The notes: generated by a model not told the origin, from the letters alone. Shown: positions 25,138-45,860, counted from the stretch's first letter. The stretch is DNA of 64,000 nt from Clostridiales bacterium (GCA_017513085.1 JAFWDK010000018.1:36679-100678); one strand, 5' to 3'. Numbers and translations: made by a program.

Positions 25138-28100
25138 TTAGAACTTTGGAGCAAAATAAACAGTTTGATCATATCGGGTGTTTTTACTCAATCCATGTTT
25201 TGAAACCACATCCGGACTTCGTTCAATACCCTTCATATAGAAATCAATATATAAATGTTGTTCATTCTCAACCGGGATCAATTCCTGATGTGCGTAGTCA
25301 TCGAGATCTTCCGGAACATACGGAATGCATGAGAATGAAAACGGTTCCTGGTGTTCTTTATAAACTTTTACGCCCAAACCATGATCGTGCTGCAAGACAA
25401 GCACGCGGGTATCGGCATGTCCTCCGTTCTCGGACGGACGGGCATATTCGTGATACAATGGCGAATCGACAGACGTAAACCAGCCGATACGCTGGGATTC
25501 CTTACGGTCAACATAAGACTCCCCGCTTCCTCGTCCATACCATCCGATCATTTCCTGAGGAAGGATCGGAACACGGAAACCATACCGGACCAGATCATAT
25601 TTCGGAACAAAACTTAAGCCTGTCGCAATCACGCCATCCGGGTGAACACGGTAATCTACAAGGATCGGTCCGCGCATACCGGATGATTTATACTTACAGA
25701 TCAGGTGGAAATCCTTGCCATCCATCTCATAGAAACTGCTTTCAAATTTGATTTCAGACTGAATGGTTCTCCAGTCTGTCTCATGCGAGAAAACAGTCTG
25801 CGAAAGAACATAGGATTTATCTGCACGGTCGATATTGGTCGCAGCACGATAGAAACTAGGAATGAACAAACCATCGAAGAATTCCTCACCATTAATGCGG
25901 ATCGAGCACAGACCACCTTCCTGTCTGCTGAAACCATAAGTGACGTTTCCGGCTTTAGCATATATGAATGCCGGCGCCGTAAGTATTTCTACCTTCTTTT
26001 CAGAAGAAGCATCGATCAACGCGCTATCCTTGGAAGATCCATCAATGATCCGAGTCTTCGCTTCTTCCGTACTCAAATAATTATCTTCGAAGATCTCATC
26101 CTGTTTTTTCGGATCGCAAACTTCATCAAGCAGCACCTGCTGATAAAACGCTACTTCATGACCGGAGCGGGCGTAATTCGTATCCGTTTCCAAAGTCAGA
26201 TGAATGTCCAGAACAAGTTCTTTGCACACAGCCTGCTGATAGATCTCGTTGGCCTTAGGATACAGTCTCCACCACGAAGGAGAAATAAACTCATTCACGT
26301 TAAACGGGAACTGCATTTCACGATTGCCCAAAGCCGAGATCGGCGGAACAACACCGGAACCACCTGTAAGACGAAGTCCACCGAGAAGGAGCTGCCAATG
26401 CAGGACCAAAGATGGTGTATAGCCGAACTGCTGAACATTATGAATGGTCAGGTTGGCAGGATTATCCGCAGACGAGAAGATCTTGATGCTTTCGCACTGC
26501 TTCTTAACTTCGTAGAAAATCGGATGCGGCTTGCGATTGGCATCCACAATGCCCTGCGCGATCGATACACCGATCTGCTCGGCATATTCAACCAAATCTC
26601 CCTGATGGATATACTTCAGATCCATCTGATCTTCCGGTCTGCGCGGACGAGCGATGATCGAATCAAAAAGCACTTTGTCTTTCTTCAATCGGGAACGCAG
26701 ATAAGGACGGTTCAGGCAAAGGTCGCACCACTCACCAAAAAGCATTCCTGCACGGTTCGGGAATGGTGGAAGATCCGAGACACGTCCGTAACGATCGATC
26801 TCACAATAGATCGGTCTCTTCGCATCGAAAGTCGAAATCTTCTCCTTGACTTCCATATATGCGTTCTCTTCAAATTTTTTACCGGTCATGGACCACATGA
26901 TAATACACGGATGATTGATCAGAGAATAAACTGTCAGCGGCAAGACCGCAGCGGCACTCTGCACGATCACGTACATACCATACTGATCACAAAGGTCGAA
27001 GAATCTGGGGTCCGTCGGATGATGCATGACAAAGATCGTATTGATATTCGCCTGCTTCATCATCAGGATATCCTGACGGTAACGCTCTAACGGAACCGAG
27101 ATACCGCTTTGCGGATCAAACTCATAGTATTTCACGCCATGAAGCGGAACAGCAACATCATTAATATGGATCACTTCTTCGGAATACGAAATGGTACGGA
27201 AACCGAAGCGTTGCTTCTTCACACAGATCACTTCGTCGTTTTTGTTCTTCACCTCAATGATGATGTCATAAAGGTTCGGCGTCTGATCCGTCCATGGCAG
27301 AACAAGCTTGGCATAAAACTCTGTTCCCAGGATCTTCACACCCTCTTTAGGAATAAGATCCTTGAGTTCTTTTCGCTGAGTAAGACGATGCTCCGGAAGA
27401 TTATACAAGTCATACTCTTCTCTTGCTTCCATCAGCCTGCAGTTAACCGTCACCTCATAATCATACTCGAGATGATTGCGAAGTTCGACCTGAATATTCA
27501 TACCCGCATCATTACGGATATCGGCATTCGGAAGGATCTCCTTCTCACGGTCCGTCTCACTGTCGGAGATACCGGAGCGGTAAAGACTTGAGATCAAAGC
27601 AGTTTTCGGTACAACGTCTCTGGCCAGAGTATCAGTCAGCCATGTCGACGTCAGCCGGACGGAAGAGATCTCGATCGGCGCTTCCGCTACGATATAAGGG
27701 AGCCGGAATAATCCTGAGAATCCAAAAGCACCCTGTGCGCGCATGATCTTATCATGCTGGTTTTTGTCGAAACGATAGACCTGAACCACGATCAGGTTAT
27801 TACCTTCATGGATATAATCATTCAAAAGGCACTTCGTTGTCGAGAATGTACTTCTGGACGACGAAGCAGATTGACCGTTCACGTAGATCTTATATCTTCC
27901 TACGATACCATCAGTCATGAAATATACAAAACGCGATACATACTGTTCCGGAAGATTGATCCAAACACGGTACACACCGACTTCATTATCGTTTTCAGTC
28001 GCGACACTGTCAGCGAGGCGCTGTTGCAAACGGCTGGTACGCTTGGCAAGCAAAGCGTTCTTCTCATAAACGAGTTCACTCGGATAACCATAACCTTCCT

Positions 28101-28332
28101 GCTGCCAGACACTCGGAACATCGATCACATCCCAGCTATCGTCGTTATAATCAAGACTCATGAAATCACCGGGGAGCTCCTCTGACGAACGCGCATGGAA
28201 AAACTTCCACTTCGGAAGATCAAGCTTCCAAAGTGACTTAACCTGTCCGAACTCCGGCTGTTGCTTCTCGCAATAGAGTTCGTCTATCGAATCATAAGGA
28301 TAAAAATATCCTTGTGCAGGTATCTGCGCCAT
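25138..28332 (-). CDS. LacZ-like GH2 protein with degenerate active site (putative pseudoenzyme)
   Basis: Full LacZ domain series (VPSVWQ..GY, FSGLFR, RFGFR, NHP.I.MWS, WYGRG..ESYVDRK, RPSENG) but no catalytic NE motif; start at ATG 28332 behind GGAG. Confidence 0.8.
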   Translation of the reverse strand: MAQIPAQGYFYPYDSIDELYCEKQQPEFGQVKSLWKLDLPKWKFFHARSSEELPGDFMSLDYNDDSWDVIDVPSVWQQEGYGYPSELVYEKNALLAKRTSRLQQRLADSVATENDNEVGVYRVWINLPEQYVSRFVYFMTDGIVGRYKIYVNGQSASSSRSTFSTTKCLLNDYIHEGNNLIVVQVYRFDKNQHDKIMRAQGAFGFSGLFRLPYIVAEAPIEISSVRLTSTWLTDTLARDVVPKTALISSLYRSGISDSETDREKEILPNADIRNDAGMNIQVELRNHLEYDYEVTVNCRLMEAREEYDLYNLPEHRLTQRKELKDLIPKEGVKILGTEFYAKLVLPWTDQTPNLYDIIIEVKNKNDEVICVKKQRFGFRTISYSEEVIHINDVAVPLHGVKYYEFDPQSGISVPLERYRQDILMMKQANINTIFVMHHPTDPRFFDLCDQYGMYVIVQSAAAVLPLTVYSLINHPCIIMWSMTGKKFEENAYMEVKEKISTFDAKRPIYCEIDRYGRVSDLPPFPNRAGMLFGEWCDLCLNRPYLRSRLKKDKVLFDSIIARPRRPEDQMDLKYIHQGDLVEYAEQIGVSIAQGIVDANRKPHPIFYEVKKQCESIKIFSSADNPANLTIHNVQQFGYTPSLVLHWQLLLGGLRLTGGSGVVPPISALGNREMQFPFNVNEFISPSWWRLYPKANEIYQQAVCKELVLDIHLTLETDTNYARSGHEVAFYQQVLLDEVCDPKKQDEIFEDNYLSTEEAKTRIIDGSSKDSALIDASSEKKVEILTAPAFIYAKAGNVTYGFSRQEGGLCSIRINGEEFFDGLFIPSFYRAATNIDRADKSYVLSQTVFSHETDWRTIQSEIKFESSFYEMDGKDFHLICKYKSSGMRGPILVDYRVHPDGVIATGLSFVPKYDLVRYGFRVPILPQEMIGWYGRGSGESYVDRKESQRIGWFTSVDSPLYHEYARPSENGGHADTRVLVLQHDHGLGVKVYKEHQEPFSFSCIPYVPEDLDDYAHQELIPVENEQHLYIDFYMKGIERSPDVVSKHGLSKNTRYDQTVYFAPKF

Positions 28333-28459
28333 AGTACTCTCCAAGCATAATCAAACATACTTTGTTAAGAGTATTGTAGCATTTCATCAAATCGCTGATG
28401 TATCAGACAGATTTCATTTTGAAGAAGTCAACGAAACATTCTGTCACATTGCGTCGCAC

Positions 28460-30916
28460 TCAATCGAGTTTATCCAGCTCTTTCTTTCTCTTACCTGCTT
28501 TTTTTCGTGCCCAGAGGCCTTTGAAGAAATGACCGTTCATCATCAGAATATAGGATTCCATCTCTTCGATCGAGATCCTTCCGAGACTAAAGCCCGCCAA
28601 AGTACGCAGCGGCATTTCCTTAGCCATGACCTCACGCATTTTCTTCTGGTCTTCCTGCTTCTCATTTTTATTCGCGCGTGAGATGCCAAACATGGTCGTC
28701 TTGTAGATGATTTTACCTACAATACCTCCTGATCTGGCTTCTTCGACCGTAGTATTCAAAGTAAACTCACCTTTTTTCGGTGGTTTCTCTTCATGGATCT
28801 GTCGACCGTATACCGCCTCGAACTGTTTCTTTTCGAAGATCTTCGTCTCAGCATTCAGATTGTAATAATGTGGCGCCAGTGCTCTATAATCCGGAACAGG
28901 AGCCGTCGGATTCTTCGACTGTACTTCAACTTCCCGACGAGCACGGATATCTCTGGACGAGGCGCCGATCTGGATCTCATATTTTCCGCTCTCGACATGC
29001 CAGTCTCCGATCTGCACGTTATAATAGGCAAAAGCTCTACGATCCAGCTTAAACTCCACCGTTCTTGTTTCCCCTCGCTGAATGAAGACTTTCTTGAATG
29101 CGCGCAACTCATGCACCGGCTTAAAGATTGCAGACGGCGGAGGCGCAACATAAAGCTGGACGACTTCTTTACCATCGACCTCACTGATATTCGTGACGTC
29201 GATCGACACCGTCAGGGTCTCGCTCTCCTCATAATTCGGGTTATCAAGCTTGATCTCGCCATAAGAAAACTTCGAGTACGACAACCCGTGTCCAAACGGG
29301 AAAAGCACCGGCATGTTCGCTGAGTCATAATATCTGTATCCGACAAAAACACTCTCACTGTAAAGAGTCTGTCTGGGATCGCCGAAATTCAGGAAAGATG
29401 GTGTATCCGAAAGCTTGATCGGGAAAGTCTCAGCCAGTTTTCCCGAAGGATTGATCTTGCCATACAAAATATCCGGGATTGCTCCGGCGCCTTCCTGACC
29501 TGGCAGATATGCCATCAGGACAGCCTTGACCTGCGAGATCCATGGCATCTCCACCGGAGAACCGGCATAAAGGACAACGCAAACATTACTGTTCTTTCTC
29601 ACCACCTCATCGATCAGACGCTGGTGGGACTTGGGCAGTTGCATATGGCTCCTGTCGAAAGACTCGCTCTCAAAACTGTCCGGAAGTCCGACAAAAATAA
29701 TGACAACGTCCTTATCTTTCGCCGCATCGACAGCCGCTTGAAGCAGTTTCTCATTGACTTCATCCTTTTCCAGATCATATCCGGGTTCATAAACAAAATT
29801 TTCGCTTCCGGTCGAAAAGCTCTGGAAGGCATGTGCCACATGAACAGGATTGATATGTGAACTTCCGCCACCCTGGAATCTTGTATTTTTGCACATAGCA
29901 CCAAGGACCGCCACACTCATTCCGGACGCGATCGGCAAGAGGCCATCATTTTTCAGAAGCACCGCGGACTCCTCGAAAGCCTGTCTGGCCAGCTGCATAT
30001 TATTCTGATAAGGCGATGAAGTCGGCTGTGGTTTATTCAAACCCTTTTCGATCATACTAAGAAGCCGCTCTGCGCTCCGATCCAGAAGAGTCTGGGGAAG
30101 TTTTCCGGATTCCACGGCTTCCGCGATCTGCCGGTTTCTCTCACCGGCAGAAGACGGCATCTCAAGATCCAATCCGGCAGCAAGCCCGTCAAGTCGGTTA
30201 TTCGTTGCGCCCCAGTCACTCATGACCACGCCGTCGAATCCCCACTCATCACGAAGGATCTCGGTAAGAAGCCTTCTGCTCTCACAGCAATAAGTACCGT
30301 TCAATCGGTTATACGCCGCCATGATCGTCCAAGGCTTAGACTCTTTCACAACCGTTTCAAAAGCTCTCAGATAGATCTCTCTCAGTGCTCTCTCATCCAC
30401 GATCGAGTCATTGGTCAGGCGCGAACGTTCCTGACTGTTTGCCGCGAAATGCTTCACTGAAGTACCGATCCCTCTGCTTTGAACACCGCGAACCAGCGCC
30501 GCGCCCATCTTTCCGGCAACAAGCGGATCCTCCGATACATACTCAAAGTTTCTGCCACAAAGCGGAGAACGTTTAATATTGATTGCAGGTCCCAGGACGA
30601 TCGATACATCCTGATCAATGGCTTCTTCTGCAATTGCTTTTCCGACTGCTTCCATGAGTTTCTCGTCAAAAGAATTCGCCGTAGTTGAAGCCGGCGGAAA
30701 ACAAGTCGCTTCACGGCTTGGTCCGTTACCTCTTCTTCCCTCGATCGTCTCCTGTTTTCGAAGACCATGCGGTCCATCCGTCATCATGATGGAAGGAATA
30801 TTATTGAGTGGAAGACGGCGCGTCCGCCAGAAATCACTACCCGAACACAACGACGCTTTTTGCTTGGCAGAAAGCGATTTCATAAGTTTGTTCACAAATT
30901 CAGAAGCCATACACAA
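28460..30916 (-). CDS. GH3 beta-glucosidase-like glycosidase with FnIII domain
   Basis: TDGPHGLR, GRNFEY.SEDP, KHFAAN, VMSDW nucleophile, FPFGHGLSY. Confidence 0.93.
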   Translation of the reverse strand: MCMASEFVNKLMKSLSAKQKASLCSGSDFWRTRRLPLNNIPSIMMTDGPHGLRKQETIEGRRGNGPSREATCFPPASTTANSFDEKLMEAVGKAIAEEAIDQDVSIVLGPAINIKRSPLCGRNFEYVSEDPLVAGKMGAALVRGVQSRGIGTSVKHFAANSQERSRLTNDSIVDERALREIYLRAFETVVKESKPWTIMAAYNRLNGTYCCESRRLLTEILRDEWGFDGVVMSDWGATNNRLDGLAAGLDLEMPSSAGERNRQIAEAVESGKLPQTLLDRSAERLLSMIEKGLNKPQPTSSPYQNNMQLARQAFEESAVLLKNDGLLPIASGMSVAVLGAMCKNTRFQGGGSSHINPVHVAHAFQSFSTGSENFVYEPGYDLEKDEVNEKLLQAAVDAAKDKDVVIIFVGLPDSFESESFDRSHMQLPKSHQRLIDEVVRKNSNVCVVLYAGSPVEMPWISQVKAVLMAYLPGQEGAGAIPDILYGKINPSGKLAETFPIKLSDTPSFLNFGDPRQTLYSESVFVGYRYYDSANMPVLFPFGHGLSYSKFSYGEIKLDNPNYEESETLTVSIDVTNISEVDGKEVVQLYVAPPPSAIFKPVHELRAFKKVFIQRGETRTVEFKLDRRAFAYYNVQIGDWHVESGKYEIQIGASSRDIRARREVEVQSKNPTAPVPDYRALAPHYYNLNAETKIFEKKQFEAVYGRQIHEEKPPKKGEFTLNTTVEEARSGGIVGKIIYKTTMFGISRANKNEKQEDQKKMREVMAKEMPLRTLAGFSLGRISIEEMESYILMMNGHFFKGLWARKKAGKRKKELDKLD

Positions 30917-30990
30917 ACCTCACAAGATAAGACATTTGTTGTTCTCATACATTATATACCAACGGTTCACTAATTCGGAAGAAAACACTC

Positions 30991-31019
30991 TTGAAAACCA
31001 CTATTTATTCATGTATACT
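30991..31019 (+). promoter_or_regulatory. Sigma-A promoter of ssrA
   Basis: TTGAAA-17-TATACT, 37 nt upstream of the tmRNA 5' end. Confidence 0.7.
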
Positions 31020-31056
31020 CATCAATCATAAAACCCGAAAATGAGAGATTGTATTT

Positions 31057-31435
31057 GGGGGCGCACTGGTTTCGACGGGGTCGTGGAGACTTAGAAAGCG
31101 GGTAGAGGATTCTCGTTGGCCTCTTAAAAAAACGAGAAATGCAAGTAATTGCAAACAACAACAATCTCGTAGCTGCTTAATTTAGCTACCATCTCCCCGT
31201 TCTATCTGTCGATCGGATCGGAGATGTCAGATGACAGACCTTACTTGCCGGCAGGTTAAACAAGACAACGTTTTGGGCTAAGCTTTGCGCGCAAGACGTA
31301 TCTATGAAGCTACCGGAGAAGGCATCCTGTTCGTGGGATCGTCTTTGAGGGGAATACTCCATACACGAACTGCACCCGGAGATGTCTTTGTTGACGTGGT
31401 TTCGGACAGGAGTTCGATTCTCCTCGCCTCCACCA
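31057..31435 (+). ncRNA. ssrA: tmRNA
   Basis: 5' GGGGGCG...GGTTTCGACGGG; 3' T-arm GGAGTTCGATTCTCC and CGCCTCCACCA; tag frame ANNNNLVAA* at 31151-31180. Confidence 0.97.
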
Positions 31436-31440
31436 AAGAT

Positions 31441-31510
31441 GAAAAAAGCCTTTTGCAACACATATATCCAGACACAAAGTCAGACGGATCGTTGCAAAAG
31501 GCATTTTTTT
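31441..31510. terminator. Long bidirectional hairpin between ssrA and the convergent CDS
   Basis: AAAAAAGCCTTTTGCAAC...GTTGCAAAAGGCATTTTTT. Confidence 0.75.
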
Positions 31511-32681
31511 ACTTAACGATGGTAATATTCTCTTTTCTCTCGTAGAAAAGCTTCAGATGGTTGGTAATATTCTCACCGACGCGCTGAAAAGTCTGCATAT
31601 TCAGTTGCATACCGTTCAAGTGCTCCTTCGCGACGCGGCCGATGGCACCGAAAATATCCTGATCTTCCTCAAGTGTATCCACAATGATCAGGTGGTCCTG
31701 ACTCTCTTCCTTACGAGTCTCCGACTTAGGATGCACCATAATACCATACCAGGCTCTCTGTACACGAGGTTCCTTGGCAAAATACTCCTTGACCGCATTG
31801 AAAAGTTCTTCCGGCTCCTTGCCTTCATTCGGTATAGCCAGCATGAGTGGTTCATTCTTATCGATTTTCTGCTCACGGATATTATTGTCGATATTCTTCT
31901 TCTGATGCTCGATACGATCGAGAAGTTCCTTAGGAACCACAAAGCCTTCCGTAGACGGATTCAGTGCCAGGCCATTGCAATCAGAATTGTCCACGATCGT
32001 CTTAGCTTCTTTAAAATCTAGAGGCTTGATCAGCTTCTCATTAATACCATTCGCCTGCTCAAGTTCATAAGTATCCGTGAAAGCAGGAAGGAATGTATTC
32101 TCACCATTTCTCAGAAGCGCCAGACCGATCTTGCCTTCTTCCTTACCGCCTTCCGGCGCATGCATCATAGGTGTGATCAGGACCGCTTCATTAACCAGGT
32201 ACTCGATCAGACGTCCCATATACTCATTATTGGTTATATGATCATTCGCTTTGACATCACGCAAAAGACCTGTCAGATACGGATTCACCACATCAGACGG
32301 TTTATCCTCTTCCGCAGACATACAGTTCACGGATGAAAGAACATCATACTTCACGATATCGCCCTGCTTCAGTCCATCGAGCACCAAAGAAGCATTGGTA
32401 TTCTCCTCGGCAACCGCAATCTTGCTGAGCATCTCATCCTGAATACTTCTGACCGTAGTTTTAAGCGATCTTCCGGAACGTCCCAGGAGGAACATCGTAT
32501 CGCCCACTTTAATATCTCCGCCATGAACATTACCAAGAACGGAAACCTCCGCCGATGTCAAAGCAAGGACATCCTCGATCACCAAGGTGACGATAGGAAA
32601 AATCCCATCCTTCTTCGGCACGATCTGTTCTTCATTTTTCTCGCCTTCCGGCTTTCCCTTTTTTCTGTCAAATAATCCCAT
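31509..32681 (-). CDS. SseB/SseB_C-domain protein with N-terminal EF-Tu domain II-like beta-barrel
   Basis: N-term IEDV...LGNVHGGDIKVGD...TTVRSIQ...GDIVKYDVL; middle PAFTD..EL...GLALNP (SseB); C-term SseB_C-like (AVKEYF...VQRAW...HLIIVD). Confidence 0.65.
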   Translation of the reverse strand: MGLFDRKKGKPEGEKNEEQIVPKKDGIFPIVTLVIEDVLALTSAEVSVLGNVHGGDIKVGDTMFLLGRSGRSLKTTVRSIQDEMLSKIAVAEENTNASLVLDGLKQGDIVKYDVLSSVNCMSAEEDKPSDVVNPYLTGLLRDVKANDHITNNEYMGRLIEYLVNEAVLITPMMHAPEGGKEEGKIGLALLRNGENTFLPAFTDTYELEQANGINEKLIKPLDFKEAKTIVDNSDCNGLALNPSTEGFVVPKELLDRIEHQKKNIDNNIREQKIDKNEPLMLAIPNEGKEPEELFNAVKEYFAKEPRVQRAWYGIMVHPKSETRKEESQDHLIIVDTLEEDQDIFGAIGRVAKEHLNGMQLNMQTFQRVGENITNHLKLFYERKENITIVK

Positions 32682-32726
32682 TTTTCCCTTATCCTTTAAT
32701 ATATTTATTTACGATGCTAACTTAGA

Positions 32727-33857
32727 TCAACCGTATTCAACTTCCGCCTTCACGATTCTTTCCCAAAGAACATTCACGCCATCCGACAAAGAATTGACGA
32801 GGATCGGAATGGATATTGAATTGGCATTGATCGGATTCAGTTTCACTTTATCGAATCGGTCTTTCCGAATAAAGAAATAATTCGAACATGTACTGTAAGG
32901 CGCTATGTATATCGTTTGCGAACCAAGCTCATCAAAAACAGTATCATCGACCATGATCGTCTTATCCTTCAGTTTCAACTGAAGATAGTCACCCGTCTTA
33001 TTTCGGAATGTATAGTGAATGATCATCTGAGAGTCGTTAAGATCAAAACTATCAATACTAAAAAGAGCTCCCTCCGTATCGACCAGGATATCAGCCGTAT
33101 CCGGCAATGCAGCTTCTTCGTATACAAAAGCATCCTCGCCCTGCGGGAAAAGATTCACCAGAACATAATTGCAGTTGTTATCCGAAATCGGGTAAATCGT
33201 ATTTTTGTTTTCAGGATCCGTAGCAAGAAGCAAGAACGAGATCCTGGTCAGATCCTGCCCATTATAGTTAGAGACACATTTGGCAAAATCTGTCGTATCT
33301 TGAAGAACAGATTTCGGCTCCATTGGCGCATCGATATAGAAATAGAAATCATTGGTTTCATTATCGACGGTCGGATTCATAAAACGAAGTCCAAAAGAAC
33401 TATCCGTCTTATTCTCGAATTCGCCGTGCACATAATAATGCTCGGCATCTTTTTCCACTTTAAAAATCGTATAACGGAAATACTGATTATCAATAACATT
33501 AACCTTTTCAAGGGTTCCGCTATAGTAACCTCTGCCATCATTACTCAAACCGAGAGGAGCCTGGGAAACAGGAATAGGAGTAGGCGTCGGCAAAACAACA
33601 TCTTCTGCAAAAATACTTCCGTCGCTGATAAACTGATCCAAAGAAAGAACATCCAGAGAAGGTTCAGAAACGGTCGCTTTAGTCGCCTTGGTCGTAGTTT
33701 CGTCCTCGTCCTCATCTTCATCGTCCTCGTCTTCCTCGGAAGCCGTAGACTTGGCCGCAACCTTATCCGTGTTCTTCTTACAGGCACTTAAAGAGAAAAG
33801 AAAAACAGATAAACTAAGGATCACAGAAAGAAACTGAATCAGCTTGCTTCTCTTCAT
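32727..33857 (-). CDS. Hypothetical lipoprotein with acidic linker and two Ig-like repeats
   Basis: Signal peptide with LSAC lipobox, EEDEDDEDEDEDE tract; start at ATG 33857 behind GGAGG. Confidence 0.7.
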   Translation of the reverse strand: MKRSKLIQFLSVILSLSVFLFSLSACKKNTDKVAAKSTASEEDEDDEDEDEDETTTKATKATVSEPSLDVLSLDQFISDGSIFAEDVVLPTPTPIPVSQAPLGLSNDGRGYYSGTLEKVNVIDNQYFRYTIFKVEKDAEHYYVHGEFENKTDSSFGLRFMNPTVDNETNDFYFYIDAPMEPKSVLQDTTDFAKCVSNYNGQDLTRISFLLLATDPENKNTIYPISDNNCNYVLVNLFPQGEDAFVYEEAALPDTADILVDTEGALFSIDSFDLNDSQMIIHYTFRNKTGDYLQLKLKDKTIMVDDTVFDELGSQTIYIAPYSTCSNYFFIRKDRFDKVKLNPINANSISIPILVNSLSDGVNVLWERIVKAEVEYG

Positions 33858-33930
33858 TTCGCCGCCTCCAAATACATATACTTCTATTGATTTTATCACA
33901 TATTCAGAAATGCACAACTAAACATATAGC

Positions 33931-33977
33931 AAGAAAAATGCCAGGTTACCTGATCTGTGGGGTACCGGGCATTTTTC
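33931..33977 (-). terminator. Terminator-like hairpin
   Basis: GAAAAATGCC.GGT.ACC...GGT.ACC.GGCATTTTTC imperfect stem. Confidence 0.6.
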
Positions 33978-34090
33978 ACGGATGCTGAAACAATATTTTG
34001 AGGACGATATCGTTTACTAGTATTCTAGCACTTATACCATATCTTGAAAAGTATCTTTTGAAAAATTCTTTCTAAATTTTTCCTTATGTT

Positions 34091-35260
34091 TTAATGGCGG
34101 GGCATAGTACTGATAAACTGCGCAATTCCCTGACAGATCGTAAATTGATACTCCTCTTTCAGAAGTTTTGCTTCCTCATCGCTATTGGAAAGATAACCCA
34201 TACGCACCATAAAAGCCGGAACATCCTGCGCCCAGTTCAATCCACTATAACTTCCGCTTTGCTTGCAACCATTAAAAGCACTTCCGGAAGAAACTGAGAT
34301 GTTCTTGCCAAGATTCTCGCCCCATGTCATCACTTCAGATGCATATTTTCCACCGGAAGGAACGATCACTTCACAACCATTCGTCGCCGAATCATTCGCA
34401 GCATTACAAAAGAGACGGATATAAAGGTCCGGATCATGCGATACCGCAAACTGAGCTCTTTCCTTATTGGATATATCTACATCATTGCTTTCTCTGGTAA
34501 CGTACACTTCACATCCGAGTGATTCGAGATACGATTTCAAAAGCAGCTCTACCGACAAATTGATCTCTGATTCATTGATACCACTGATCACTCCGGAGAA
34601 TCCTTCTGCCGATTTTGCTTTCGAGCCACCCATGGAATCAGACATCGCTTCCTGACTAAGATTAGCTACTTCCTGATGTCCGGCATCGATCACCACACAA
34701 TAGCCATTAAGATTCGGACCGCCGGCCGGGAACGGAGTCGTTGCCGGTGTTGGTGTCGCAGTGGGTTCTGCCGTTGTCGTCATCTCGGTGGTTTCAGAAG
34801 TTGTTACTTCGGACGTAGTCTCCTCCGAAGTCGCCAAAGTAGTGGTTTCAGTAGACGTAACGGTAGTCAGTGTAGTTTTCTTTTCTCCGCTGAAGTGTTT
34901 CACCAGAAAGAAGATACCTGTACCGATCAGTGCCAGGATCAGAATAGCCGCTGTGCCCAGAAGAATGGCTGCATTTCTCTTTCTGCGCCGTATCTCTTCT
35001 TTGCTTTTTCTGGGAGGCATAGTACGACGGGTCCCGGATACATGATGATTGGGAGATTCCGGCTTGTGCACCGGTGCTTTTGCCGGATGAGAGGGCGCTT
35101 GCGCTTTGGCAGGCTGCTGGGCTTTGGATACATTTGAATCTGCCGACACACGTCTGATGCCGGAGAGCATATTCTCTTGCTTCTTCTGGTTTATGTCAGC
35201 GGATTTCTTCGGGTCCGGGCGATTCTGATTTCCCTTTGGGTTGCCTTTTTCTTTATCCAT
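34091..35260 (-). CDS. Membrane-anchored Amidase_3 (N-acetylmuramoyl-L-alanine amidase) homolog, probably inactive
   Basis: Disordered basic N-term, one TM, Thr-rich stalk, then IDAGH...E...TR...RA; third Zn ligand site reads RLFCN and catalytic Glu site reads VRMGY. Confidence 0.82.
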   Translation of the reverse strand: MDKEKGNPKGNQNRPDPKKSADINQKKQENMLSGIRRVSADSNVSKAQQPAKAQAPSHPAKAPVHKPESPNHHVSGTRRTMPPRKSKEEIRRRKRNAAILLGTAAILILALIGTGIFFLVKHFSGEKKTTLTTVTSTETTTLATSEETTSEVTTSETTEMTTTAEPTATPTPATTPFPAGGPNLNGYCVVIDAGHQEVANLSQEAMSDSMGGSKAKSAEGFSGVISGINESEINLSVELLLKSYLESLGCEVYVTRESNDVDISNKERAQFAVSHDPDLYIRLFCNAANDSATNGCEVIVPSGGKYASEVMTWGENLGKNISVSSGSAFNGCKQSGSYSGLNWAQDVPAFMVRMGYLSNSDEEAKLLKEEYQFTICQGIAQFISTMPRH

Positions 35261-35466
35261 AGTATTTACCTCTTTTTCCCATTCAAAAGGATTGTAACAT
35301 AAACTCGTCTTCTCCTTTTTTACATTCTCTGTACTTATATTACAATTTGTCACCGATGCTATATCCGGGAAATAAGAAGTTTTCTCGAATTTCCACAAAT
35401 TGTTTTGATTTCTCGGACGCCGTAGTATACAATAACAAAGTACGTTGGTTTTATAAGGGGATTGTC

Positions 35467-36615
35467 ATGACCAAAGAAGCAATTGTTATCGGATTAGGCT
35501 TATCCGGATGTGTCGCCGCCAGACTTCTGGCAGATGCCGGTTATTCCGTTTCTTGTTTTGAAAAAGAATCCCATATCGGAGGAAATCTTTTTGAAGAGAT
35601 CCGACCGAACGGTCAACGCGTCCAGCTTTATGGTCCTCACATCTTTCACACGGATAATGAAGATGTCTACACTTTTTTGAAGCGTTTCGGGAATTTTTAT
35701 CCTTATACACATCGCGTTCTTGCCGATGTATCCGGTAAAGTAGTACCGGTTCCCGTTAATTTCACTTCTCTTTCCAAACTGTTCAATACCAGACAGGCGT
35801 CGATCCTTACAGAAAAACTGACAAGTGTTTTCGGCGTCGACAAACGGATTTCTCCGGATGAGCTACTGTCCAGCGGAGATAATACCTTGATCGGACTCGG
35901 GAAGTATTTAGTGGAGAACCTTCAGATCCCGAATATCAATCGTGTCAGTGAGGAATCCCAGATTGCCTGCGATGATTCCTATATGTATGATACTTTCGTT
36001 GAAACCGGAGATAATGACAATTATTATCCGGATAAATATCAGGCTATGCCGATCCTGGGCTTTCTCCCTCTTCTGGAGAATATGCTCTCTCACCCGAAGA
36101 TCTCCTACCAGACCAATACTGATGGGTTTGCGCGTCTTTCACTGGTGGAAGAGACAGGTTCTTTTCTGTTTGATGGAATCCCGTTTAAGGGTCCGGTCAT
36201 TTTCACCCCTTCTCTGGATATTCTTTTTGATTACCGTTTCGGGCATCTTCCCTTTAGAATATCCAATATCACACATGAGGACATCGATCAGGACTACTAT
36301 CTCGATAGTGCTGTTTTGACTAATGCCCATGATGCTTCTTGTGTTCGTATTTTTGAAAATAAGTATTTAACTCTGATCGATACGCCCGGCACGACCAGCA
36401 TCTGCAAGGAAAGTTCATACTCCAAGGTCATCAACAAGCAGTTTGAACCATTCGAACCGGCTATTAATAAAGAGAGCCTTCGTATCTACGGGAAATATGC
36501 ACGGCTTGCCGGTAAATTCCATTCCCTTATCCTGTTAGGCAGATTGGCTTGTTATAAGAATATGTCGATTTCTGATTGCATCGAGCAGGCCATGAAGGAA
36601 CTACCGGTTAAATAA
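35467..36615 (+). CDS. UDP-galactopyranose mutase (Glf)-like flavoprotein, divergent
   Basis: GLGLSG, HIGGN, YGPHIFHT, DKYQAMP, LGRLACY retained; substrate-binding motifs eroded; ATG 35467. Confidence 0.8.
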   Translation: MTKEAIVIGLGLSGCVAARLLADAGYSVSCFEKESHIGGNLFEEIRPNGQRVQLYGPHIFHTDNEDVYTFLKRFGNFYPYTHRVLADVSGKVVPVPVNFTSLSKLFNTRQASILTEKLTSVFGVDKRISPDELLSSGDNTLIGLGKYLVENLQIPNINRVSEESQIACDDSYMYDTFVETGDNDNYYPDKYQAMPILGFLPLLENMLSHPKISYQTNTDGFARLSLVEETGSFLFDGIPFKGPVIFTPSLDILFDYRFGHLPFRISNITHEDIDQDYYLDSAVLTNAHDASCVRIFENKYLTLIDTPGTTSICKESSYSKVINKQFEPFEPAINKESLRIYGKYARLAGKFHSLILLGRLACYKNMSISDCIEQAMKELPVK

Positions 36616-36646
36616 TCCGGATCCGTCATTTATTCTTCACCGTTTT

Positions 36647-38077: not shown

Positions 38078-38141
38078 ATCCGTAACGTACCTCCTTCTCT
38101 AAAAGCTCATATAATTATAACATATCAATAAGAACGAATTG

Positions 38142-38843: not shown

Positions 38844-38853
38844 GTTTTTCACC

Positions 38854-40023
38854 TTAAGCTGTGACTTCGGAAGAAGCATCGAATACGAGACGTCCTCGCA
38901 CCCATACTTTCTTTACATTGAATTCGTTATCAAAAGCAACCATGTCTGCGAATTTTCCCGGCTCAAGCGTTCCGACCTGCTTTTCGATCCCAAGGACTTT
39001 GGCCGGATTGATCGTACAGGCTTTCAGTGCTGCGCGTAACGGCATTCCCCAGGAAAGAAGGTTCTTAAACTCGGAAAGAAGATCCGTCGTGGATCCGGCA
39101 AGTTTTCCGTCTCCCATATCGGTCCGGCCATTTACCACACGCACCGGCTTGCCTCCAAGGGAATACTCACCATCCGGCATACCTGCTGCACGCATCGCAT
39201 CGGATACGACAACGGCCCTGTCTTCTCCCAGACTCTTCCAGGCTATGCTAAGTACGGAAGGATGAACATGCATGCCATCGCAGATCAGTTCGCATGTTGC
39301 CCGCTCATCAGTAAGCAAAGCACCGACAGCGCCGGGTTCATGGTGCGAAAGCGGACCCATGGCATTGAAAAGATGCGTACCGTGATGCACACCGGCATCG
39401 ATAGCAACTTTGGTCTGCGCATAAGTTGCATTTGTATGAGCTATAGACAGTATAAACTTATCTTTCATGTCTGCTATAAAAGCATCAGCGCCGGAGAGTT
39501 CCGGAGCCAGATCGACGATCTTAACCATATCTTCCGGGAAGCCGGCCAACAGGTCTTCCATATAAGAAACCGAAGGAAGTTCAGCATAGTCCGTATTCTG
39601 CACACCACACTTTTCTTTGGAAAGAAAGGGACCTTCCAGGCGAAGGCCGATCATCTTTGCGCCAAGGGTATCTTGCTCCTGAAATACCTCAGATGCCATA
39701 AGAACATGTTTGAGATCTTCTTTTGAGATCATCATAGTCGTCGGGCAAAAAGAAGTCACCGCATGCGAAGCCAGGTAACGTGAGACCGTCTCAAATCCTT
39801 GCACATTTGCATCCGACGTATCCGCACCATTTGCTCCATGGACATGGATATCTATAAAACCCGGAAAAAGAGTCAGACCTGACAGATCGATCGTCTCCTC
39901 ATCTGCCGGAACAGATAGTATCTCTTTTCCTATGCCCGTGATTCGTCCATTCTCGACAACCACGGTCATATCTTTCTTCATACTGAAATCAGGACCGATC
40001 AGATCCGCATGTGTAAATCTCAT
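38854..40023 (-). CDS. nagA: N-acetylglucosamine-6-phosphate deacetylase
   Basis: PGFIDIHVHG, LEGPF, AHT, THLFNAM, DGMHV, SDAM, LAGS, INPA. Confidence 0.95.
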   Translation of the reverse strand: MRFTHADLIGPDFSMKKDMTVVVENGRITGIGKEILSVPADEETIDLSGLTLFPGFIDIHVHGANGADTSDANVQGFETVSRYLASHAVTSFCPTTMMISKEDLKHVLMASEVFQEQDTLGAKMIGLRLEGPFLSKEKCGVQNTDYAELPSVSYMEDLLAGFPEDMVKIVDLAPELSGADAFIADMKDKFILSIAHTNATYAQTKVAIDAGVHHGTHLFNAMGPLSHHEPGAVGALLTDERATCELICDGMHVHPSVLSIAWKSLGEDRAVVVSDAMRAAGMPDGEYSLGGKPVRVVNGRTDMGDGKLAGSTTDLLSEFKNLLSWGMPLRAALKACTINPAKVLGIEKQVGTLEPGKFADMVAFDNEFNVKKVWVRGRLVFDASSEVTA

Positions 40024-40820
40024 TCTTCGTCTCCTTCGTGCATTCTGTTACATACCAGTTCCTCTCCTAACAAGGTATAACCTTGTCCGCTTCGGATAGT
40101 GTCCATGATATCCTTTATTCCGGAAGGTCTTTGATCCATTGCAAGACCGGCACCCATGTGATGGTCCGGCGCATGACAATCTGATCCGGATGTCATAGGC
40201 AGAGCATGTTCCTGCGCGTAATGAAGTGCTTTTGAATTATAAATCGGATCATGGTTTCCCAGATTTATCACTTCTACCGCATCAACAAGATCCGGATAGA
40301 ATCGATGCTCCGTGATATACCGTGCCTCACGGAACGGGTGTGCATGAATATTCATGCCGCCATGATCACGTATCAGTGTCAGGTAATCTTCTATCGGAAT
40401 CGTCATGATCTCAGGATGTGCCTTCAGCCAGTCTTTTCCTACACCCAGTGTAATAAATTCCGTAGTGAGATAATTGAACTCGAATCCAAAGAAAACAGAA
40501 AAACCGATCTCATCGCCGCACTGCTTCGCTTTCTCATAGGCCAGGCAGTATCGGTCGACCTGTTCTTCCCAAGGCAGTGATCTGTCGATACAGGAGTTTC
40601 CATTCATGAAATGATCAGTAACGATTATTCCGTCATATCCCGCTTGCTTATATGCAAGGACCATCTCCTCAGGCGTGCCTCGTCCGCAAGCAGAACTCTG
40701 AGATGTGTGCATATGTGTTTCCAGACAAAAGCAGTGTTCTCGCGGCTTGATCAAATGAAAGCTCTGCTCGTTTCGTTCGGATCTCATGGTCTTCCTCGTA
40801 TTCATCGGTATGTTTAACAT
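40020..40820 (-). CDS. PHP-domain phosphoesterase
   Basis: THMHT, VTDH, HAHPFR, GSDCH metal ligands. Confidence 0.85.
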   Translation of the reverse strand: MLNIPMNTRKTMRSERNEQSFHLIKPREHCFCLETHMHTSQSSACGRGTPEEMVLAYKQAGYDGIIVTDHFMNGNSCIDRSLPWEEQVDRYCLAYEKAKQCGDEIGFSVFFGFEFNYLTTEFITLGVGKDWLKAHPEIMTIPIEDYLTLIRDHGGMNIHAHPFREARYITEHRFYPDLVDAVEVINLGNHDPIYNSKALHYAQEHALPMTSGSDCHAPDHHMGAGLAMDQRPSGIKDIMDTIRSGQGYTLLGEELVCNRMHEGDEE

Positions 40821-41020
40821 TCTACCCCTAATATATCATTTTGTACACGAACACCTTTTGTATTTTCCCCTTGAAATCGGGTTTCTAACTGATATTAAGG
40901 GCATTTTTCTTCACGAATTTGCACCATTTCGACGAATTCGTAAATCTTGTACACCATTTTCCGGAAAAGAGACTATAATCTAAAGAAAAGATAAAATGAA
41001 AAATTAATAGGAGGATTATT

Positions 41021-42097: not shown

Positions 42098-42134
42098 TCA
42101 GGTTTTTCCTATCACTCATTGATAAAAAAATCGA

Positions 42135-42178
42135 TAAAAAAGCAGGGTGTGATTCTTCCATCACACCCTGCTTTTTTA
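42135..42178. terminator. Bidirectional intrinsic terminator after ilvE
   Basis: AAAAAAGCAGGGTGTGAT...ATCACACCCTGCTTTTTT. Confidence 0.9.
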
Positions 42179-42300
42179 TGTCGTATTTTCTCAACTACAC
42201 GAACAGATTTCTGCACGATATTTCGTCTTGATTTTTTATATGAAGTTATCATCTTCAATCATTCGCCAATGCTGATATCTCAGCATTTTTCCAAGACATA

Positions 42301-42372
42301 AAAATAACCATCTGATATCTCAGATGGCCATTTCTGTAGTTACATAAATTCAGACAAATCTGTCGTCCTTCT
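42301..42372 (-). ncRNA. Candidate small RNA (unassigned)
   Basis: TTGTAT-17-TATCAT promoter with extended -10 (42407..42379) pointing at a hairpin plus U-tail, with no CDS between. Confidence 0.35.
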
Positions 42373-42454
42373 GTGAAGATGATACCATGTAATTCACAAA
42401 TATACAAGTACAAAAATTATTCTTCACAGAAATGTAAAAACACGGTAGTATTCA

Positions 42455-43030
42455 TCAGCCCAGATCGAAGATCTTATAGTGCTTCAAACCGAGAATATCG
42501 AAGTCAAGTCCAAGCTGCGAATGATAGTTCACGATGAAATAAACCAGGAGCACCAGACCGGTGAAAAAGATCAGCAAACCAATGAAGCGAGGTGTTCTTG
42601 TTGTGTTCGTAACATTTGTCTTTGCAGCATAATCATGGAATGTTTTGCTGTCGTAATTACCTGTCGCATGAACATAAGAAAAGATAGCCGGCAGGATCGT
42701 GAACAAACACAGTGTTTTAATAAAACTGCGGATGATATTGTGAAGGAAAGTATTTCCGGAATGGAAGTCAACATCACAGTTCATGCAAAGCTTACCCGGA
42801 GTGGTAGCCATCAATCTTGTACAGAGCACATCACAAATAAAGAATGCACCAAGAATCTCTCCAATCAAGATCAGTCTGCTTTCAAGAGACATCGTATCAA
42901 TATGGAATAAAAAACTTGACTCTGTTGCAGTAAACATCAACATGTTCAAGCCTACCAAAAAACCGAAAAAAGTGATCAAATCGAGGAAGACCGCAATCAA
43001 ACGGGTTCCCATAGTTGCATTCGTATTCAT
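42455..43030 (-). CDS. RDD-family membrane protein
   Basis: RLIAVFLD, TPGK, FHDYAAKT and hydrophobic segments. Confidence 0.8.
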   Translation of the reverse strand: MNTNATMGTRLIAVFLDLITFFGFLVGLNMLMFTATESSFLFHIDTMSLESRLILIGEILGAFFICDVLCTRLMATTPGKLCMNCDVDFHSGNTFLHNIIRSFIKTLCLFTILPAIFSYVHATGNYDSKTFHDYAAKTNVTNTTRTPRFIGLLIFFTGLVLLVYFIVNYHSQLGLDFDILGLKHYKIFDLG

Positions 43031-43130
43031 AACCGTTATCCCCTCCTAAATGCTTCTATGTTTAAATATATCACTACGAAAAAATCACGTCAATTTTCTT
43101 TATTACTGTAAGTATCCCGTTCATACGTCC

Positions 43131-43565
43131 TCAGTAATAGAAAAAGCACTTCAGCACATCGCCGGATTCCCAACGGAAGTTCAGAGTCTGAAATTGTCCC
43201 GGAGCAAGCGGCGTATACTTGTTGGCATCGTTACAATGCGTCATCTGCACATATTCCGGATCCTCCGGAATCTTGTCGGAAAAGAAACCGAGAAGCTCTT
43301 TGTCATTCAAAGAGATCTGCGCGTTCACGCAATTCTGCGGGATCAGGACATCCACACGGAAACGGCATGGTTTGTCCATAAGAAACAAAAGACCTAGTAC
43401 TTCACGATCTTCCTTAGGCTTTGTGACGCGCTGGGCTATTGTAACATGCGAGCCATCCAGATCAAACTCATAATCCGCGTCGATGTTTTCACCGATCACG
43501 ATGCCGGAAAACAGATCGCCTTCTAGTAAATGTCCTTTTTTTGGCGCCTGGAATTCATTTTCCAT
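43131..43565 (-). CDS. Hypothetical protein resembling a GH127/GH146 non-catalytic beta-sandwich domain
   Basis: FRVDVLIP...AQISLND...LNFRWESGDVL pattern; ATG 43565 behind GGAG. Confidence 0.5.
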   Translation of the reverse strand: MENEFQAPKKGHLLEGDLFSGIVIGENIDADYEFDLDGSHVTIAQRVTKPKEDREVLGLLFLMDKPCRFRVDVLIPQNCVNAQISLNDKELLGFFSDKIPEDPEYVQMTHCNDANKYTPLAPGQFQTLNFRWESGDVLKCFFYY

Positions 43566-44808
43566 TATGCTTCTCCTTTTTATCCTGACTCGTTTGTGTC
43601 GTAGATTCTTCTGATGCTGACTGTGTCTTTTTCTTTGGCTGAGCTGTTGGTTCCAACGTCTCACCTGCTTCGTAACGGGATACGGTTACACAATTCTGTG
43701 ATCCCTTCTCTACCGCTTTCACCACGATAAAAGCAACAACATTGATACGCACCGTCAAACGGTTCTCGTCAAGCGCATCTATTAACGTCTTATAGGAATC
43801 CAGATTCGTGCTGCGGATCTTTCCTCCATAATCCTGCAAGGCCAGGTTCTTCGTTTCTTTCATATCTTCGAGTTTGGAAAAATTATAATCCGAAGACTCG
43901 AAAAACACGATCGGTATCGATGCGTTATCAAAAGGCACAAAGTCGGATCTGACTTTCGTTACCTCACGATACATATCCTGCTTTCCATCCCCATCGACAT
44001 CAAAACTCAGTAAAGACATATTGTAGCAAAGATCCACACCGGTCTGCGAATTGACTGCATTCTCATATGCCACATCATACGCTTCGTAAAGTTTCCGTCG
44101 GAAAGAGTACTTCTTCCCGTCTTTTAACGAAGAAAGACCGGCATGCGCATACAGTTTGTCACCGGCATATATACTCTCGATACAATACATGCACTCGATT
44201 TTTTTCTTTTCCTCTTCAGTCAGGTTATTCAGGAAATAAGACGCTCCGGCGTAAGATGCCGATCCGGCGCCAAAAGCTACGATGATCACATCATAACCGT
44301 AAGTATGTCCGTACATCTGCTTGGCAATCGTCAGCAAAGCTCCGATACCGCAAGCATTGTTCTGGATACCATCGTAAGCAGGATACTCGAATCGCTGGTC
44401 ATACTTGACCGGAGAATCATAGTGCGCGCCGATCACGACCGTCTTTCTCACCTTGGAATATTCACCGAAAGAATCTCTCTGCATGAAACCTTCGCCATTA
44501 AGACGAACGATATAATTGGTCGATGTATCTCCACCGGTACGAAAAGATTGCGTCTCAACTTTATAACCGATCTTTTCCAGTTCATTCTGTATTAATGTAC
44601 CGGCACCCGCTTCTCCGGCCGAACCCGAATAACGGTAAGGAAACTCATTGGCGATCTTTATTGCGAGATCCGAACCATATGTACCATAGTCGGCAACTTT
44701 CTGCTTTTCTTTATCTTTTTTGCATGCCGCACACCAGGGCAGCATGCAAAGGCATATTGCCAGTGATACGATTCTTACTAGGAAATGTGTTCTGTTTCTT
44801 TCTCTCAT
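43555..44808 (-). CDS. M28 peptidase-like lipoprotein (Iap/aminopeptidase fold), probably inactive
   Basis: Lipobox AAC; GAHYDS kept, but QNNACG, FGAGS, RSDF and RST..D replace DDNASG, F.AEE, SDH and H...D. Confidence 0.8.
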   Translation of the reverse strand: MRERNRTHFLVRIVSLAICLCMLPWCAACKKDKEKQKVADYGTYGSDLAIKIANEFPYRYSGSAGEAGAGTLIQNELEKIGYKVETQSFRTGGDTSTNYIVRLNGEGFMQRDSFGEYSKVRKTVVIGAHYDSPVKYDQRFEYPAYDGIQNNACGIGALLTIAKQMYGHTYGYDVIIVAFGAGSASYAGASYFLNNLTEEEKKKIECMYCIESIYAGDKLYAHAGLSSLKDGKKYSFRRKLYEAYDVAYENAVNSQTGVDLCYNMSLLSFDVDGDGKQDMYREVTKVRSDFVPFDNASIPIVFFESSDYNFSKLEDMKETKNLALQDYGGKIRSTNLDSYKTLIDALDENRLTVRINVVAFIVVKAVEKGSQNCVTVSRYEAGETLEPTAQPKKKTQSASEESTTQTSQDKKEKHNGK

Positions 44809-44819
44809 TTCTTCTCCTG

Positions 44820-45860
44820 TCAGCGCCCACCGTGGAAATCTTCACAGATGATATCGAGTTTTTCCGAAAAAAACAACATCGCCTCGGCTGCCGTCATGGT
44901 CGCTTGCTTCACCGTACCATTTCCGGACGCGAGGATCACGGGAACTTCATCTTTATATGGGGCAATGTTTTTGCTGATCCTTCTGAGTAGAGAATCCTTG
45001 GAAACTCCTTCGAGTTTTCTCGGAAATCCAAGAAGATCATAAAGCCGGAAAAGCGCCTCAGAAGGATTCATCGCTGCCATTGCGAAGGCAAGTGCTTCTC
45101 CTTCCGAATACCGAAGGAAACGGAAATGCTCCAATATTGCCTCTTTCAATTCACGGCCAAAGTCAAAAGCATTGGCATTGGCAGCGGTAATGCGTGATTT
45201 GGCAAGATAACATTCGTCGATCGTAATAAACATATCGGAATGATTCACCAGACGGTTCAAAAGTGTGATCTGATCAAGCATGCCATATTGGATGATCTGT
45301 GCATAGCCGTTTTTAAGAAAATGTTCCGGAAGTGTGCTTAAAAATTCCACATCCATAATTACGGCAATCGGCTTACACTTCACGCTGACACAGTCTTTAT
45401 GACTCATATAATTCAAATAGGCCGTATCTGCTTCTGCCGACTCAAGCATGCCCAGAAGGGATGTCGGAACCAGACAATAAGGCAGACCGCCCAGAAATGT
45501 CGAAGCGACAAAAGCCGTGACATCAAGGATACTGCCGCCGCCCCATCCGACAAGAAGATCCTGTCCGGAGAAGGAAATATCCATCAGTCTTTCGAATACA
45601 TCCATAACAACATCGAAGTTTTTCGAAGACTGTCTTCCGTCGATCATGATCACCGTCGGAACGATGCCTTTATTCTCAAGTTCGGAAATGAAGCGAAGGT
45701 GGTGCAGACCATTGACTTCTTTATCCGTAACGATCGCAACTTTTACCGGTGCTAAGGAGGATCGCTCCTTTACGATTTCATAAAGACGCTCGTGTGCAAT
45801 TTCCCTTCCGCAAATGATCGGATAGTCGCACTTGGACTCAACACGTTTCAGACTTGGCAT
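44820..45860 (-). CDS. 3-dehydroquinate synthase (AroB)-like protein, catalytic residues lost
   Basis: YPI, IVTD, GGG..LD..AF.AST, VPTSLL, P.AV..D..FL.TLP, GEA scaffold; Zn ligands and catalytic Lys/Arg/His absent. Confidence 0.82.
   Translation of the reverse strand: MPSLKRVESKCDYPIICGREIAHERLYEIVKERSSLAPVKVAIVTDKEVNGLHHLRFISELENKGIVPTVIMIDGRQSSKNFDVVMDVFERLMDISFSGQDLLVGWGGGSILDVTAFVASTFLGGLPYCLVPTSLLGMLESAEADTAYLNYMSHKDCVSVKCKPIAVIMDVEFLSTLPEHFLKNGYAQIIQYGMLDQITLLNRLVNHSDMFITIDECYLAKSRITAANANAFDFGRELKEAILEHFRFLRYSEGEALAFAMAAMNPSEALFRLYDLLGFPRKLEGVSKDSLLRRISKNIAPYKDEVPVILASGNGTVKQATMTAAEAMLFFSEKLDIICEDFHGGR

Follow-up and report, generated by a model that had tools for sequence, protein, structure and literature searches.

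The DNA analysed here is a window of 64,000 nt from a Clostridiales bacterium (GCA_017513085.1, JAFWDK010000018.1:36679-100678), which between positions 25138 and 45860 carries 16 genes on both strands (Table 1). Five of these encode homologues of unrelated enzyme families, hereafter GH2L (LacZ-type glycoside hydrolase family 2, GH2), Ami3L (Amidase_3), GlfL (UDP-galactopyranose mutase, Glf), M28L (M28 peptidase) and AroBL (3-dehydroquinate synthase, DHQS, encoded by aroB), and it is the standing of these five (as relics, pseudoenzymes or altered enzymes, and as one system or several) that is considered below. A preliminary description of the same DNA had portrayed them as full-length proteins that are kept by selection in spite of eroded active sites, and had proposed that they may serve a shared, lineage-specific process.

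Table 1. Genes and features of the 25138-45860 stretch and its right-hand border (window coordinates; rows in gene order)
Feature	Position	Strand	Description
GH2L	25138-28344	-	LacZ-type five-domain GH2 homologue, 1068 aa
GH3	28460-30916	-	
tmRNA (ssrA)	31057-31435	+	Tag peptide ANNNNLVAA; outside the five-gene set
SseB-like gene	31509-32681	-	
hyp396	32727-33917	-	396-aa lipoprotein, no family match; downstream of Ami3L
Ami3L	34091-35398	-	Amidase_3
GlfL	35347-36615	+	GLF
CdaA			First gene after GlfL
Crp-family regulator			After CdaA
NagA			After the Crp-family regulator
PHP-domain gene	40020-40820	-	Between NagA and IlvE
IlvE			After the PHP-domain gene
RDD-family membrane protein			After IlvE
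143-aa ORF	43131-43562	-	No Pfam family; between the RDD protein gene and M28L
M28L	43555-44808	-	Peptidase_M28
AroBL	44820-45860	-	DHQ_synthase
GluRS	46008-47486	+	Beyond AroBL
GlnRS			After GluRS

Conservation of the five reading frames

Families were assigned with Pfam models and with NCBIfam equivalog models at their respective cut-offs, and catalytic positions were placed by alignment to solved or canonical homologues, the roles of the active-site residues in all five families being those established in the literature. The window's genome (G000) was compared with further members of its genus (g1, within family f1) and with a sample of 151 genomes of the order, which comprises four families (f1-f4) and was searched with each of the five proteins. 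The sources of close homologues are named ‘Clostridiales bacterium’ or ‘Saccharofermentanaceae bacterium’.

The five unrelated ORFs match GH2, Amidase_3, GLF, M28 and DHQS models and proved to be full length, being open in G000 and in 10/10 further genomes of the genus (i.e. 11/11), with no in-frame stop other than those that precede a real start or mark a real end. Throughout g1 the motif replacements are fixed, and the alignments bear out that each of the five has lost catalytic, metal-binding or substrate-binding residues; both proteins for which a matching equivalog model exists (GlfL and AroBL) fall below its cut-off. The accompanying statement, that neighbouring enzymes retain their residues, agrees with the scores of NagA (288.9 vs cut-off 225.65) and CdaA (193.8 vs 188.8), which pass their equivalog models, and fails for PepV, which is not in the stretch.

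Among the five closest species pairs of g1 (NG86; dS 0.1-1.3, near or above 1 for several pairs, by which the ratios are rough) dN/dS ranged over 0.03-0.045 for GH2L, 0.10-0.15 for Ami3L (0.04-0.09 for its amidase domain), 0.06-0.09 for GlfL, 0.04-0.07 for M28L and 0.04-0.08 for AroBL. These values (0.03-0.15 overall) resemble those of the intact neighbours (GH3 0.03-0.04, NagA 0.05-0.12, CdaA 0.01-0.04), and the former active-site segments (omega 0.00-0.09) are constrained at least as strongly as the rest of each protein. The earlier expectation that the five folds are kept by purifying selection is thus supported.

The notion that the five are relic genes in decay, or products of faulty assembly or ORF calling, is scarcely credible: the accelerated evolution of GlfL (described below) and the N-termini over-called for some ORFs by a mechanical ORF list would agree with it, but the frames are open throughout the genus, dN/dS is far below 1, and the same DNA is present in DNA runs of several studies (labelled as gut and sheep-gut metagenomes). 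In two metatranscriptome libraries, assembled contigs, which may include DNA carry-over and weigh little in this respect, were recovered for parts of GH2L, for parts of GlfL and, as a single contig, for the M28L/AroBL junction (44154-44947); most of Ami3L (33892-35223) was without contig cover in the two runs, which is not evidence of a silent gene. Judged by their sequences, all five are non-canonical yet conserved family members, be they pseudoenzymes or enzymes of a new chemistry.

Active-site remodelling, distribution and gene partners

In LacZ the acid/base glutamate lies in the NE motif and the nucleophile glutamate in the EY.HAMGN motif. GH2L (probable start Met5, no signal peptide) has the LacZ-type five-domain architecture, with five Pfam GH2 domains above their cut-offs, and resembles LacZ-type enzymes (among them T. 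maritima 6s6z and E. coli 1dp0; NCBIfam NF052611) in its N-terminal sugar-binding domain, first half-barrel and Bgal_small_N. It differs from them, across the whole of f1, in that NE, DE..H and CEYAHAMGN are missing and the barrel is ~50 residues shorter; the HMMER alignment to the LacZ structures runs to residue 462, is interrupted over 463-580 and continues from about 581. Set against three canonical LacZ-type genes of the same order, GH2L is without the GVNRH, VIDE..LE.HG, WS.GNES and CEYAHAMGN segments: WSMTGKK replaces WS.GNES, the nucleophile segment is absent, and none of 12 members across f1 has the canonical glutamates (at the candidate nucleophile position, distant members have Pro and one g1 species has Gln instead of Glu). 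Inspected by eye, the Trp motif of domain 5, which we take to be GGDDSW, is apparently missing as well.

GH2L is the sole GH2_C match in G000 and was found in 39/151 genomes of the order (f1 38/38, other families 0/112). Its only conserved neighbour is rluB, arranged tail to tail (25086/25138 in the window, and likewise in four further genera of f1), and comparison of its neighbourhoods across genera yielded no other conserved partner; the upstream side is variable, with an H+-pyrophosphatase in several genomes (Pfam) and an aldolase-like ORF (by eye). The AlphaFold model, built on a 12-sequence alignment, has a mean pLDDT of 68.8 and drops below 50 over 541-618, and because this low-confidence region is the remodelled half-barrel, the model cannot tell whether a pocket is lined by substitute catalytic residues. 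We picture GH2L as a putatively cytoplasmic, LacZ-like, single-copy core protein of f1 that is devoid of both catalytic glutamates and of the Mg/Na site, and that may act in non-hydrolytic binding or regulation, or in a new chemistry.

The active centre of Amidase_3 proteins consists of His-Glu-His Zn ligands and a catalytic Glu. Ami3L is membrane-anchored (transmembrane helix near 143-167, followed by a Thr-rich linker) and its extracellular Amidase_3 domain (230-435) reaches 102.4 bits (cut-off 27). Its first ligand His and its Glu ligand are kept; in 11/11 g1 genomes the second ligand His has become F or Y (F in G000) and the catalytic Glu has become R. This loss is restricted to g1 and g16 (1/1), and the His and Glu are kept in g15, g17 and g18 (5/5), as they are in the paralogues on contigs C26 and C18 of G000. 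Matches resembling Ami3L are mostly confined to f1 in the 151-genome sample, where paralogues blur orthology. The nearest functional analogy is offered by the inactive LytM factors EnvC, NlpD and DipM, which are reported (PMC10336132, PMC8416486) to be likewise extracytoplasmic folds of peptidoglycan hydrolases that have been kept after losing metal-binding or catalytic residues. These factors, which regulate wall hydrolases, have an M23 fold, whereas Ami3L has an Amidase_3 fold and its loss is recent (g1 and g16 only).

Directly adjacent and divergent to Ami3L stands GlfL, a homologue of type-A UDP-galactopyranose mutase (true start near Met41), an arrangement observed in 11/11 g1 genomes and in 6/6 examined loci of g15-g18 (five genera). 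UDP-galactopyranose mutases rely on uridine-binding Y/T/W residues and on an Arg of the mobile loop. In comparison with the characterized proteins (PDB 3hdq, 2bi7; TIGR00031), GlfL shares the fold, the GxGxxG FAD motif and several Arg/Glu/Tyr positions; it differs in the loss of the uridine-binding YT.KQW, the mobile RVP loop, PYYP and YxYxDMD, in missing the equivalog cut-off (234 vs 303.75), and in that the glycosyltransferase partner stands beside another Glf. The motif loss occurs only in g1, where a new motif (ADDSY.ND) is invariant; the type-B Glf has canonical motifs, as do the orthologues from the sister genera (6/6).

Orthologues of the GlfL type were found only in g1 and g15-g18 (about 10/151 genomes), with 0/29 in g14 at that score level. 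The type-A gene of the sister genera is their sole GLF gene (5/5 genomes; 208-228 bits vs 106 for the GlfL of G000) and is followed by a GT2 glycosyltransferase gene, the orthologue of which (48-52% identity) lies in G000 on contig C14 (~108104-109979), directly downstream of a canonical type-B Glf. This type-B Glf is present in 20/20 g1 genomes (88-97% identity) and in 20/21 of g14 (59-81%), and only a type-A gene (33-41% identity to the type-B query) is found in g15-g18, g48 and g49; f1 thus holds two Glf lineages, and g1 is the only sampled genus with both. On the g1 stem GlfL accumulated 0.90 substitutions/site, its identity to the sister copies being 37.8% (vs 52-63% among the latter), and within g1 it is conserved at 50-57%, as compared to the 88-97% of the canonical type-B protein.

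We read these distributions as a displacement followed by repurposing, in which the new role is the conjectural part. The pair of the sister genera consists of an apparently active wall amidase and the sole Glf, with GT2 downstream. In g1 the GT2 partner stands with a second, canonical Glf, the Glf-GT2 of C14 being the apparent working pair. GlfL, the displaced copy, has lost its UDP-binding motifs, and Ami3L beside it a Zn ligand and the catalytic Glu, with purifying selection acting on both to this day. Ami3L could be a peptidoglycan-binding module on a membrane anchor, devoid of amidase activity, and GlfL a putative remnant that binds flavin and has gained a conserved motif in a loop.

The second pair consists of AroBL and M28L. 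Peptidases of family M28 bind co-catalytic metals through H, D, E, D/E and H and employ a general-base Glu, and DHQS has Zn ligands (Glu, His, His), phosphate-binding Lys/Arg/Asn and residues that bind 3-deoxy-D-arabino-heptulosonate 7-phosphate (DAHP). M28L starts with a lipoprotein-type signal peptide, followed by an M28 fold in which, in G000, the first His is kept and the other positions read D->N, EE->GS, D->E and H->F. As a core gene of the order M28L is present in 149/151 genomes (129/129 of high quality), and the Glu-Glu pair was retained in 0/26 orthologues from all four families (a single Glu in one). A profile search over 1.84 billion representatives delimited a discrete family (~55 clusters); the general-base position is occupied by Glu in 0/52 of its full-length members, and free variation is seen at the metal-ligand positions. 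Look-ups of M28L in the ESM Atlas returned generic M28 clusters only. M28L has its fold in common with M28 aminopeptidases (Iap-like PRK10199; the passenger domain of PDB 9oqa, with which it shares GDK.YAHAG), and among its weak matches is nicalin (7tm3), a non-catalytic M28 fold. What sets it apart from known M28 proteins is the combination of a missing catalytic Glu and variable ligands with its being a bacterial lipoprotein, a core gene of an order and the partner of a DHQS-like gene.

AroBL has no signal peptide and was found in 55/151 genomes (f1 38/38, f3 16/37, f2 0/38, f4 0/37), M28L occurring without it in f2 and f4. It scores 107.9 with TIGR01357 (cut-off 305), and its model (pLDDT 88.7) has true DHQS as nearest structures (TM 0.77-0.85, 17-22% identity). 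Like AroB (PDB 5eks, 5hvn, 1dqs; TIGR01357) it keeps the fold and the dinucleotide-binding glycine motif, and it departs from AroB in its replaced Zn ligands and DAHP-binding residues, its deletion and its sub-threshold score: the GGK Lys, the AE.IKY Glu and three His (GH..GH / HGE) are replaced, six residues are deleted at the substrate-binding Arg, these residues are non-canonical in 13/13 family members, and a new motif (AIEGHFRF) is invariant. A canonical AroB is encoded elsewhere in G000 (contig C24); active paralogues, whose presence the preliminary description had advised looking for, are present for Glf, AroB and Amidase_3. The ESM Atlas look-up for AroBL gave generic DHQS clusters only, and a word-indexed search gave close relatives only (33 matches).

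Using the AroBL alignment as query, a scan of species-representative genomes recovered 107 relatives (those with a name being Saccharofermentans, Mageeibacillus or unclassified Clostridia), of which 80 loci were kept. In 79/80 of these AroBL is immediately followed by M28L on the same strand (the 80th ends at a contig edge), the gap between the two high-scoring segment pairs being -100 to +400 nt in 78 of the 79; the intergenic distance is 11 nt in G000, and one f3 genome shows a 4-nt overlap of the two ORFs. GluRS divergently adjoins AroBL in 66/80 loci (L092-L171), and given this adjacency, together with the GlnRS gene that follows in the window, the pair resides in a stable housekeeping neighbourhood. 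Where AroBL is absent (L065, L073-L076; f2, f4), M28L is followed by ORFs of ~160, 320 and 410 aa, which by eye resemble an NfeD-like membrane protein, an SPFH/stomatin-like protein and an ATPase.

The adjacency itself is observed, and since AroBL always stands directly upstream of M28L the two probably act in one process. Different compartments are predicted for the two proteins. M28L, a surface lipoprotein, may be a pseudo-peptidase with a binding or scaffolding role; AroBL is a cytoplasmic protein of DHQS fold which, its dinucleotide motif intact and its metal and substrate ligands gone, would bind a nucleotide. A farther-reaching proposal, which we consider improbable, would make of the two an obligate module of a new kind (a metal-less nucleotide-binding DHQS fold joined to a surface M28 pseudo-peptidase) with a non-catalytic envelope function in signalling or in wall/lipoprotein assembly, specific to Saccharofermentans/Mageeibacillus-type Clostridia, with Ami3L-GlfL of g1 likewise turned into non-enzymes of a new role after displacement.

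Linkage, retained motifs and rival readings

Outside g1 the five genes are dispersed. On a single contig of a g16 genome (G088) GH2L lies at 48.6 kb, Ami3L/GlfL at ~100 kb and M28L at 117.8 kb; in a g15 genome (G041) the genes lie between 75 and 137 kb; and in g14 GH2L and M28L are 547 kb (G056: 197 vs 744 kb) and 718 kb (G150: 285 vs 1003 kb) apart. The co-occurrence and linkage of all members across lineages by which a single system would be recognized were not found, linkage outside g1 being limited to two pairs, AroBL-M28L and Ami3L-GlfL, which are real modules and the only linked ones. Since the phyletic ranges differ, the ages of residue loss differ and linkage is lost outside g1, the five do not make up one system. 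We argue, with a probability of roughly 0.75, that they belong to five families as non-canonical members, each independent of the others and maintained by selection, that their active sites were lost at different times, and that their proximity within 21 kb reflects the gene order of g1 only.

The competing view, that the five constitute one lineage-specific pseudoenzyme system with a shared process such as envelope assembly, appears very improbable to us. It can draw on the presence of five such proteins within 21 kb in an order conserved in 10/10 g1 genomes, and on the extracytoplasmic location of the Ami3L domain, M28L and hyp396. The proposed shared process does not, however, survive the comparison of ranges (149, 55, 39 and about 10 of 151 genomes), for the five do not co-occur, an outcome that the preliminary description itself had named as refuting, and with this the system reading fails; besides the unequal loss ages and the distances above 500 kb in g14, the genes fall into no fewer than four transcription units, which are distributed over the two strands and intermingled with housekeeping genes and a tmRNA, and rluB is the only conserved neighbour of GH2L.

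Several observations weigh against the reading of five independent and inactive proteins. With regard to linkage, the five genes of g15 and g16 still lie within 62-70 kb, by which some regional linkage is older than g1 (a point also in favour of one system), and no P value is attached to five in 21 kb. With regard to orthology, the paralogues on C26 and C18 nest among the sister-genus Ami3L sequences, the g14 and f3 matches are ambiguous as orthologues, and one g15 genome (G127) has GlfL without an Ami3L match above threshold. With regard to catalysis, ‘non-catalytic’ is what we infer from missing residues, the selection estimates share the roughness of the dS values given above, and parts of the ancestral machinery persist: GlfL keeps the R280-, E301-, R343- and Y349-equivalents together with GxGxxG, AroBL keeps the GGG..D nucleotide motif and PT(S/T)L, and the remodelled barrel of GH2L has acquired invariant residues (D524, W539, D541, R566, D572, H580, D583), the Asp, His and Arg of which suggest either a conserved site for a ligand or a new chemistry.

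The motifs kept in GlfL and AroBL and the new invariant residues of GH2L make new catalysis possible, and that at least one of the five is a working enzyme with altered chemistry is conceivable, if doubtful. Put more broadly, some or all of them might still be enzymes, through relocated residues or new reactions, and hence neo-functionalised rather than pseudoenzymes (GlfL might, for instance, be a flavoenzyme acting on something other than a UDP substrate, AroBL an NAD(P) enzyme that needs no metal, and GH2L an enzyme with Asp-based catalysis), an alternative that we entertain tentatively and hold less likely than not. Besides the retained cofactor motifs, the low omega of the remodelled segments (0.00-0.09) and the new invariant motifs in GlfL, AroBL and GH2L would suit such enzymes, but the freely varying metal-ligand positions of M28L, the Pro and Gln at the candidate nucleophile of GH2L and the evolution of GlfL at a much faster pace than the canonical Glf would not.

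Neighbouring genes and significance

Gene order in the stretch is kept in 10/10 further g1 genomes, all genes being present except that for the PHP-domain protein, which occurs in 1/10 (G020) although all of its neighbours are conserved, and which is thus a variable insertion between NagA and IlvE. The tmRNA sits between the Ami3L-hyp396-SseB run and GH3-GH2L, splitting a long run of minus-strand genes; it reaches very high depth in one metatranscriptome run, and the breaks at 31400-31437 in contigs of the DNA runs hint at strain variation immediately 3' of ssrA. The N-terminal segment of the SseB-like protein weakly resembles EF-Tu domain 2 (NCBIfam). This protein and hyp396 evolve fast (38-50% identity within g1), and as a consequence their not being detected beside Ami3L in the sister genera (tblastn, 1e-8) is no evidence of absence.

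Pseudoenzymes are described as widespread (PMC10211241), and the term M28 is absent from a review of pseudo-metallopeptidases (PMC11266112). In a limited literature search, which is no proof of novelty, neither a dead LacZ family nor an M28/DHQS-like pair nor inactive Amidase_3 proteins of this type turned up. Pseudoenzymes and repurposed folds being a known category, what the stretch adds is new members of it: a dead LacZ-like core gene across f1, an order-wide M28 pseudo-peptidase lipoprotein with a tightly linked DHQS-like partner, and a dated case in which the takeover of the glycosyltransferase partner by a second Glf copy was closely followed by loss of the substrate site in the first. 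Of these, the AroBL-M28L module and the Glf displacement are leads, if modest ones. Moreover, the locus cautions against taking the physical proximity of odd-looking proteins within a single genome as evidence that they form a system. To accept the automatically assigned names (‘beta-galactosidase’, ‘iron-containing alcohol dehydrogenase’ and ‘M28 family peptidase’) would be to overestimate what the rumen and gut bacteria that carry these genes can do in carbohydrate degradation, in the shikimate pathway and as peptidase producers.

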